UHGV virus genome: UHGV-1632131
DNA: 25,098 nucleotides
Reading direction: 5' to 3' (one strand)
Source: a virus
Shown here: positions 19,613-19,742 of the stretch, in pieces
Numbering within the stretch: position 1 is the first letter of the stretch
How the letters are laid out: every line of letters begins with the position of its first letter
Made by a program: the position numbers and the translations under genes
Notes under the pieces: model-generated
Databases searched by the model: none
Seen by the model: the letters and a program-made list of their open reading frames with translations, nothing else
Told to the model about the DNA's origin: nothing

Positions 19613-19742
19613 TGCCGCATCAAGAAAGAAGCCGACTTGTGATCCCTTTCTGCGGGCATTTGAAAGTGGATCCAGCTCAGGCAGTCGGCTTCTTTCTTGT
19701 GTGAGATGTAGCGTATTTGCCCATCTCCGGGTGGGCTTTTTT
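19613..19742 (+). ncRNA. candidate small RNA: 16-bp perfect hairpin plus intrinsic terminator
   Basis: AAGAAAGAAGCCGACT (19621-19636) pairs perfectly with AGTCGGCTTCTTTCTT (19682-19697); inner GATCC/GGATC sub-stem in the loop; terminator GCCCA-TCTCCGGG-TGGGC (19718-19735) plus T7 (19736-19742). The 5' end is not defined. Confidence 0.45.

Follow-up and report, generated by a model that had tools for sequence, protein, structure and literature searches.

What is the long hairpin that stands ahead of an intrinsic terminator and two transfer RNA (tRNA) genes in a D6-like phage-plasmid: a small RNA gene of its own, one piece of a longer transcript, or a feature of the DNA itself? The locus lies in the viral genome UHGV-1632131, analysed here as one stretch of 25,098 nucleotides (nt; hereafter the window), which is 96.7% identical to Escherichia phage D6 over positions 19321-19900. 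The hairpin is found within a 1.27-kilobase (kb) gap devoid of genes between a pmgS-like gene (17716-18927) and the genes for tRNA-Asn and tRNA-Thr. Phage-plasmids of the D6 and P1 types, which frequently bear resistance genes, are common in Escherichia coli (E. coli), Salmonella and Klebsiella. An earlier note on this DNA had described the hairpin and terminator as a stand-alone terminated small RNA (sRNA), likened to the c4 immunity RNA of phage P1. We propose that they belong to a processed leader RNA, in which an RNase III-type hairpin and a leaky terminator would together release a short terminated RNA, and we give this reading a probability of about 55%.

Structure of the hairpin and terminator

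The underlying observation of a long hairpin followed by a terminator was confirmed. The two arms, AAGAAAGAAGCCGACT (19622-19637) and AGTCGGCTTCTTTCTT (19683-19698), each lie one base to the right of the coordinates first given, and the pair C19621-G19699 extends them, so that the perfect stem claimed to be of 16 base pairs (bp) is one of 17 bp (19621-19637 / 19683-19699) enclosing a loop of 45 nt. No longer perfect inverted repeat with a loop of up to 100 nt occurs in the window, and the maxima in 20 shuffled sequences were 9-12 bp. The loop folds further, as had been noted, through an inner 10-bp stem (19641-19650 / 19662-19672) with U19667 bulged, an apical loop of 11 nt (19651-19661) and two GATC sites (19642 and 19669). 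Together the outer stem, two junction pairs and the inner stem amount to ∼29 stacked pairs, enough for the roughly two turns of mostly regular double-stranded RNA expected of an RNase III processing site. On the 3' side an 8-nt bulge (19675-19682), invariant among the variants described below, contains UCAGGC, the most invariant unpaired motif of the hairpin. The predicted folding free energy (ΔG) of the hairpin by itself is -39.9 kcal/mol, and the + strand of the 151-nt region folds at -62.4 kcal/mol (z = -4.6), a stability reached by none of 200 shuffled sequences.

The textbook terminator of the earlier note is likewise present, with its T7 tract ending at 19743 and not at 19742. It consists of a 7-bp stem with five G-C pairs, a 4-nt loop and the T7 tract (hairpin ΔG of -12.3 kcal/mol), which is the G+C-rich stem-loop and U tract of an intrinsic (Rho-independent) terminator. 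A UAUUU motif, the terminator hairpin and the U7 tail give this region the sequence build expected of an Hfq-binding sRNA.

Conservation, strand and coding capacity

Copies of the hairpin in phage, plasmid, viral-contig and metagenome collections yielded an alignment of 10 distinct variants in which 96% of the cells are paired. Compensatory double changes occur at four pairs, compared with 1.1 ± 0.7 in shuffled alignments, none of 500 of which had as many, and with 0-1 in slid controls. In the outer stem the L072 lineage has U-A in place of A-U and A-U in place of G-C, at the junction U-A is changed to A-U, and the inner stem has C-G versus U-A. These exchanges support the view that the base pairing of the hairpin is under selection. 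Wobble pairs that are possible only in + strand RNA are seen in pSa1423 (U-G) and L182 (G-U), at alignment positions U39-G95 and G46-U80. The base of the terminator in the L072 lineage is a G-U pair, again compatible only with a + strand RNA; variants of the terminator, which is common to P1, P7 and all D6-like phages, retain pairing. Because the wobble pairs, the orientation of the terminator and the co-oriented tRNA genes all agree, the RNA is assigned to the + strand.

Reading frames that overlap the region had been dismissed in the earlier note as not genuine, and the comparison bears this out. The 92-residue open reading frame (ORF) on the + strand (19524-19802) is reduced to 4-24 codons in L012, L072 and pSa1423, is missing from L176 and ends in a different frame in D6; among the relatives, frame changes occur at the T run. 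Frames over the region are broken or shifted in L003, L012, L072, L176 and D6, the insertions and deletions among relatives (+2, +1, -4, +1 and -2) are not multiples of three, and the - strand ORFs over the hairpin vary in length and end point. A Pfam search of the overlapping ORFs on both strands gave no match. With frames unconserved, stops occurring early and no Pfam match, a protein-coding gene at the hairpin was rejected. Judged from sequence comparison, the hairpin and terminator form a conserved, non-coding + strand RNA structure.

The hairpin element is present in 97 of 5426 complete E. coli genomes. It carries no annotation in D6, in the listed plasmid matches or in the matches examined among these 97 genomes, no description of it was found in the searchable literature, and it matches no Rfam family.

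Homology to the P1 and Qin leaders

Homology to phage P1 starts at 19716 and continues at ∼94% identity over the aligned 185 nt (19716-19900). The P1 annotation (NC_005856) places a "dicF-like region" at 68791-68892, downstream of the C1-controlled promoter Pban and upstream of the same two tRNAs. In P1 the terminator separates Pban from the tRNA genes and ban, and the annotation shows no further promoter ahead of the tRNAs. The P1 ban-operon leader therefore shares with the window the terminator, at least 185 nt following it, the succeeding tRNA-Asn and tRNA-Thr, and a position after a phage-regulated promoter. However, the hairpin is missing from it, an unrelated module of three hairpins stands ahead of its terminator, and its C1-type operators are absent from the window, where none was found with up to 3 mismatches to the consensus. 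In related phages the sequence ahead of the shared terminator is of three kinds, namely the P1-type module, the D6-type hairpin or an insertion sequence. In the L072 lineage the order is the hairpin, the P1-type module (∼130 nt) and then the same terminator, and because the module stands between them the hairpin and terminator are separable modules.

The Qin locus of E. coli K-12 (NC_000913.3, 1647300-1650600; L198) was fetched as a DicF control. From ydfC to dicB it contains, in order, a long hairpin with the base CAUAAC / GUUGUG, a module, DicF with its terminator, and a tRNA-shaped element. Between the P1-type module of L072 and the Qin module just 5' of dicF (L198 1955-2065) the identity is 89%, and the corresponding value for the P1 "dicF-like region" is 73%. 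In a four-way alignment the hairpin under study takes the place of the Qin long hairpin, while the linker and terminator take that of DicF and its terminator. The hairpin is thus located as in a dicBF-type leader, just 5' of an internal terminator, with the homology running via the L072/P1 module. No resemblance to DicF itself was detected: the DicF covariance model (RF00039) gave no match at E values up to 10 in window positions 18900-20300 or in the P1 region, whereas the Qin control scored 76.7 bits, and local alignment to DicF was no better than to shuffled sequences. Because P1 and the window both lack a match to the DicF model, the P1 label concerns the neighbouring module; as far as sequence can tell, "dicF-like" reflects a module that lies beside dicF and not DicF.

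DicF is a proven trans-acting sRNA derived from the polycistronic dicBF transcript, with a 5' end generated by RNase E and a 3' end that comes from termination in the 53-nt form and from RNase III in the 72-nt form (PMC5069750). In Qin, a helix of ∼18 bp (GAAUUUUGUGAUGUGGUG / CACUGCAUCACAAAAUUC) closes the STnc100-like element between dicF and dicB (L198 ∼2146-2291), and counting 19 nt past the 53-nt end we infer that the 5' arm of this helix contains the RNase III end of the 72-nt form. The locus under study resembles Qin dicF in having the leader of a putatively repressor-controlled operon with a long hairpin and a short RNA segment that ends in an intrinsic terminator, in some lineages the 89%-identical structured module, and further structured RNAs before the presumed read-through to downstream genes. 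It differs in that there is no sequence or covariance similarity to DicF, in that tRNAs follow instead of dicB, and in that the hairpin matches the hairpin upstream of the dicF module and not DicF.

The tRNA-shaped elements of these loci have a recurrent architecture with cloverleaf-like minimum free energy folds. A closing stem of 7 bp is followed by a D-like arm, a long central arm, in many cases an extra arm and, abutting the 3' strand, a 5-bp stem capped by an AGGCA loop. The pattern was found 146 times in the fetched related loci and 3 times in shuffled copies. Two such units were observed in the window, at 19402-19499 and 21681-21810; ARAGORN and the Rfam model detect neither, the STnc100 model missing the former at E = 10 and the latter at E = 1. 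The cloverleaf-like fold of the former has z = -2.6. The Qin element scores 34.1 bits (E = 1e-5) against Rfam STnc100, which is under the 47-bit cut-off. The hairpin under study does not have the multi-branched architecture of STnc100 and PasD (RF02076), with its closing helix of 7-8 bp, whereas its neighbour at 19402-19499 does.

Further relatives come from unrelated 40-kb temperate phages of Klebsiella and other enterobacteria that share a 21-mer with the window (Table 1). In these phages the 21-mer lies in a gene-free stretch of ∼800 nt, flanked upstream by a CI-like repressor gene and downstream by rdgC. These leaders contain stem-GAAGAGA-stem hairpins with covarying stems, which are counterparts of the small hairpin at 19603-19618, and long hairpins of 56-157 nt (loci L141-L176) in which the base CACAAC / GUUGUG is conserved while the stems of ∼20 bp are wholly different yet paired. 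Each of the long hairpins directly precedes a true tRNA or a tRNA-shaped RNA.

The predicted leader RNA and its candidate promoter

A consensus scan found no sigma-70-like promoter between ∼19130 and 19620 and predicted none between the terminator and the tRNA genes. The candidate that precedes this interval, at 19094-19122, is overlapped by the inverted boxes TTCTAACA / TGTTAGAA and is likely a phage-regulated leader promoter. The RTGTTAGAAA box to which these belong is enriched in the window (8 sites versus 1.3 expected). In the window, D6 and L072 alike, an RTGTTAGAA box is followed by a promoter-like site, an 11-bp hairpin and a second box directly before the -10 element, an arrangement that comes after the pmgS-like gene in D6 and L072. 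In pSa1423 the arrangement is only degenerate, the box differing by one base (CGTTAGAA) and a clear -10 being absent. The boxes of the window were observed at 6933, 16627, 17677, 18944, 19107, 21462, 22891 and 22913, 1-3 nt ahead of -10-like hexamers; inverted pairs occur at 19094-19116 and upstream of an lpa-like gene, and the box also precedes the pmgS-like and lpa-like genes. RTGTTAGAAA is probably an operator or late-promoter box of the D6 lineage.

Conservation among D6-like elements becomes tight near 19322, ∼300 nt 5' of the hairpin, the preceding 400 nt being diverged. The predicted leader of 620 nt (19125-19745) has a fold z score of -6.2, and a chain of hairpins emerges from the consensus fold of 22 relatives. 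This fold predicts, among others, the upstream long hairpin at 19339-19404, in which the L072 lineage has a compensatory change from A-U to G-C. Of the stand-alone terminated small RNA of the earlier note, the non-coding + strand RNA and the genuine terminator hold, but no nearby promoter was predicted and the element is flanked by conserved modules. The hairpin is probably no free-standing gene but a single module within a long, structured leader upstream of the phage tRNAs.

Proposed mechanism and alternative explanations

In the reading that we favour, a leader transcript would start ∼500 nt upstream of the hairpin, at the candidate promoter, pass through long hairpins and the tRNA-shaped, STnc100-like element, and then either stop at the terminator or read through into tRNA-Asn and tRNA-Thr. 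The hairpin would serve as punctuation at which RNase III cleavage separates the units of an sRNA/tRNA precursor, a role proposed because of the analogy with DicF-type processing and the ∼29-pair helix. The terminator would be a leaky stop or an attenuator, or would be overridden. Termination and processing would release an RNA of ∼45-125 nt composed of the linker UGUGAGAUGUAGCGUAUUU, the terminator hairpin and a U tail, which, lying in the DicF position, could act in trans with Hfq. RNase III processing hairpins are known from phage early transcripts, such as the T7 early region, the lambda N leader and sib. The present hairpin is like these a long, near-perfect double-stranded hairpin between units of a polycistronic phage transcript; in contrast, the units there are mRNAs while here they are non-coding RNAs and tRNAs, and cleavage here is predicted.

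Several observations weigh against this reading. The promoter assignment stands on a consensus match and a conserved box, and RNase III cleavage is postulated from helix length and one relative only. Sequences complementary to the loop and stem, the search for which the earlier note had called for, are at chance level in the window (7 matches of 10-mers versus 6.8 expected). Duplex energies with ftsZ from -80 to +40 are no better than those of shuffled sequences, although this is a crude test in which authentic DicF reaches only p = 0.14. In the inner stem of the commonest D6 variant one position is a C-A mismatch, where the - strand would have U-G. Conservation is lower in the linker than in the stem, and L012 and pSa1423 have insertions or deletions there, which is unlike a seed region. 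Lastly, the hairpins form a narrow family (∼10 distinct variants, most of them 97% identical), so that the covariation derives from few events, largely in one lineage; because a metagenome scan for more divergent copies yielded only near-identical ones and one chance match, this base could not be widened.

A purely cis-acting leader, in which the terminator attenuates transcription of the tRNAs, the hairpin stabilises or insulates the transcript and the released fragment has no function, overlaps the favoured reading and differs from it on trans activity only. We regard it as possible though rather doubtful. It accords with the poorly conserved linker and with a terminator that lies between the sole candidate promoter and the tRNAs, just as in P1 it stands 3' of Pban and 5' of the tRNA and ban genes; small purine-loop hairpins with covarying stems are found upstream, where lambda has nut-type sites, and the Klebsiella-type element stands just downstream of a CI-like repressor gene. 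On the other hand, the equivalent segment of Qin before the terminator is the trans-acting DicF (PMC5069750), and STnc100 and PasD, to which the neighbouring units are related, are Hfq-associated sRNAs. That the hairpin and terminator are instead a stand-alone sRNA of ∼100-250 nt, which is transcribed from a promoter of its own and acts in antisense or immunity like P1 c4, appears unlikely. The stable hairpin, the A/U-rich stretch and the terminator with its U7 tail are the usual build of an enterobacterial sRNA, and the invariant loop and bulge motifs GCGGG and UCAGGC could be pairing sites. However, there is no promoter-like site within 500 nt upstream, conservation continues unbroken upstream into other structured modules, and the ∼130-nt module that parts hairpin from terminator in the L072 lineage shows that they are not one fixed unit. 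Nor does the likeness to c4 hold up, since no match to the Rfam C4 family (RF01695) was obtained at the gathering score or at E values up to 10. The P1 c4 and P4 CI immunity RNAs are also small structured phage RNAs cut from longer leaders, but the element under study has no family match and no nearby complementary targets beyond chance, and its locus lies outside the immunity region.

The remaining explanations act at the level of DNA. A palindrome that serves as a protein-binding site, a cruciform or a recombination boundary between cassettes is improbable. Symmetric changes in a palindrome would also appear compensatory, mosaic joints adjoin the hairpins (P1 homology begins at 19716, and modules are present or absent by lineage), and the loop of another hairpin, at 20359-20445, holds a remnant of a tRNA T-arm (GGGTTCGAATCCC). 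By contrast, the G-U wobbles in the hairpin variants and at the L072 terminator base are tolerated only in + strand RNA, the bulge and mismatch of the inner stem are untypical of a protein-binding palindrome, and the terminator follows in the same orientation in a region co-oriented with the tRNAs. We consider a Dam-methylation or pac-related site built from GATC and TGATCC, as the earlier note had suggested, to be exceedingly improbable. The inner stem does carry two GATC sites, and AAAGGGATCA, the complement of 19640-19649, occurs twice in pacA, at 23753 in a pac-like cluster and at 23448 upstream of it. However, the 3' GATC is present in only 1 of the 10 hairpin variants, the 5' GATC, the commoner site with 7 of 10 variants, is changed to GATT or GTTC in four variants with pairing kept (the replacements among the variants being GATT, GTTC and GAATC), and complementary 10-mers are at the chance level given above. 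TGATCC occurs 10 times on the + strand of the window versus ∼6 expected, which is not significant enrichment, and for this reason its presence in the loop carries no weight. Separately, GGATCA/TGATCC sites were observed at 23452, 23705, 23757, 23785, 23823 and 23836, inside a pacA-like ORF (23391-24755), and this cluster (23452-23836) is presumably the phage pac site.

Other features of the gene-free stretch

Table 1. Positions of the hairpin, its terminator and the accompanying features in the window
Feature	Position	Strand	Description
Candidate leader promoter	19094-19122	+	CTAACA-17-TATAAT; scan score 10/12; predicted start near 19129
Upstream long hairpin	19339-19404	+	13-bp perfect stem CAACATTAAGGAG / CTCCTTAATGTTG; 40-nt variable loop
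tRNA-shaped element	19402-19499	+	7-bp closing stem UUGCGGU / GCCGCAA; D-like, long central and extra arms
Conserved 21-mer	19561-19581	+	GCTGGCGTGGCAAACGCGACA; common to unrelated 40-kb Klebsiella and enterobacterial temperate phages
Small hairpin	19603-19618	+	GCGG-AGAGAGUG-CCGC; purine-rich loop; invariant in D6-like copies
Hairpin under study	19621-19699	+	Outer stem, junction pairs 19638-19674 and 19639-19673, inner stem, apical loop
Linker	19700-19718	+	UGUGAGAUGUAGCGUAUUU; 19 bases unpaired in the fold; A/U-rich right before the terminator
Intrinsic terminator	19719-19743	+	GCCCATCTCCGGGTGGGC (19719-19736), then T7 (19737-19743); terminator scan
Downstream structured block	19744-20204	+	Reaches tRNA-Asn; includes tag-like frame 19805-19837 and long hairpin 19925-20007
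tRNA-Asn(GTT) and tRNA-Thr(TGT)	20205-20357	+	Rfam, ARAGORN

At gathering scores Rfam finds three tRNAs only in the whole window. Permissive Rfam searches over 18900-20300 and 20300-21950 returned no credible match to the hairpin, those to STnc240, MicA and a microRNA having E values of ∼1 or worse. The 3-kb stretch 18928-21924 holds tRNAs and structured RNA-like modules only. Hairpins with long stems and large loops were also observed in the gene-free region at 19011-19093, 19268-19328 and 20591-20672, their stems being 11 bp (GTGCTGGTGGG / CCCACCAGCAC), ∼11 bp (GTGATGATGAT / GTCATCATCA) and a 13-bp perfect inverted repeat. The long hairpins at 19925-20007, 20359-20445 and 20861-20936 have in common the base CA(C/T)AAC...GUUGUG and similar first 15 nt.

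Within the block conserved between P1 and D6, a frame of ten codons without a start, GCA AAC GAT GAT CTG ATG ATG GTA GCG GCC TAA (ANDDLMMVAA-stop; 19805-19837), resembles the tag of transfer-messenger RNA (tmRNA) and is preceded by an in-frame TAG seven codons upstream. In variants the encoded tag ends in AAA via GCA or GCT, two have a TAATAA double stop, and one degenerate copy has no stop. A tmRNA at this position was considered and rejected: ARAGORN predicted none, the permuted-tmRNA model scored 24 bits against a cut-off of 47 bits, similarity to E. coli ssrA is restricted to an 11-mer and an 8-mer, and no alanine tRNA-like acceptor end was seen. A tmRNA of P1 is absent from the published tmRNA surveys examined. 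In the P1-like viral contigs L045, L084, L110, L114 and L124 an insertion sequence follows GGTTTAG, downstream of the terminator and just 5' of the tag-like frame; judged by eye, its 3' end resembles the C-terminus of TnpB.

Relation to known RNAs and implications

STnc100 and its structural relative PasD are prophage sRNAs reported to have seed regions and distinct target sets, those of PasD being derived from RNA interaction by ligation and sequencing (RIL-seq) (bioRxiv 10.64898/2026.05.13.724894). The prophage Pas sRNAs have a shared terminator and a variable 5' part, and are processed from longer transcripts (Zhu, Shabalina and Storz 2026; bioRxiv 10.64898/2026.05.13.724894). The RNA under study is comparable with STnc100, PasD and PasA (RF02076) in being prophage-borne, ended by a terminator and, on the favoured reading, cut from a longer transcript, with variants that have a common 3' end but different 5' ends; tRNA-shaped, STnc100-like units adjoin the hairpin, but the hairpin itself matches none of these RNAs. 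The RNA would therefore be of a known kind, the terminated and processed RNA derived from a phage or prophage leader, of which DicF and the Pas sRNAs are examples, and the hairpin is an undescribed member.

The modular RNA array common to P1, D6, Qin and the Klebsiella phages may be new as a synthesis. A more far-reaching and speculative version, which we think unlikely to hold in full, is that P1, the D6-like phages, Qin dicBF and the 40-kb Klebsiella phages carry a widespread array of non-coding RNAs in which long RNase III-type hairpins, their stems hypervariable but covarying throughout, alternate with tRNAs and with STnc100- or PasD-like RNAs and which ends in a lineage-specific RNA at a shared terminator. 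The D6 RNA would then be a new trans regulator in the DicF slot, and the tag-like frame might interfere with, or exploit, ribosome rescue.

Placement of the hairpin in a dicF-type family leads to a concrete model, that of a processed, terminated leader RNA upstream of phage tRNAs, and explains what the "dicF-like region" label in P1 denotes. It also suggests that temperate enterobacterial phages exchange structured RNA modules, swapping the RNA that stands ahead of a common terminator. A released RNA active in trans would be a new regulator of host genes supplied by a phage-plasmid; with activity in cis alone, attenuation and processing would control the supply of the phage tRNAs.

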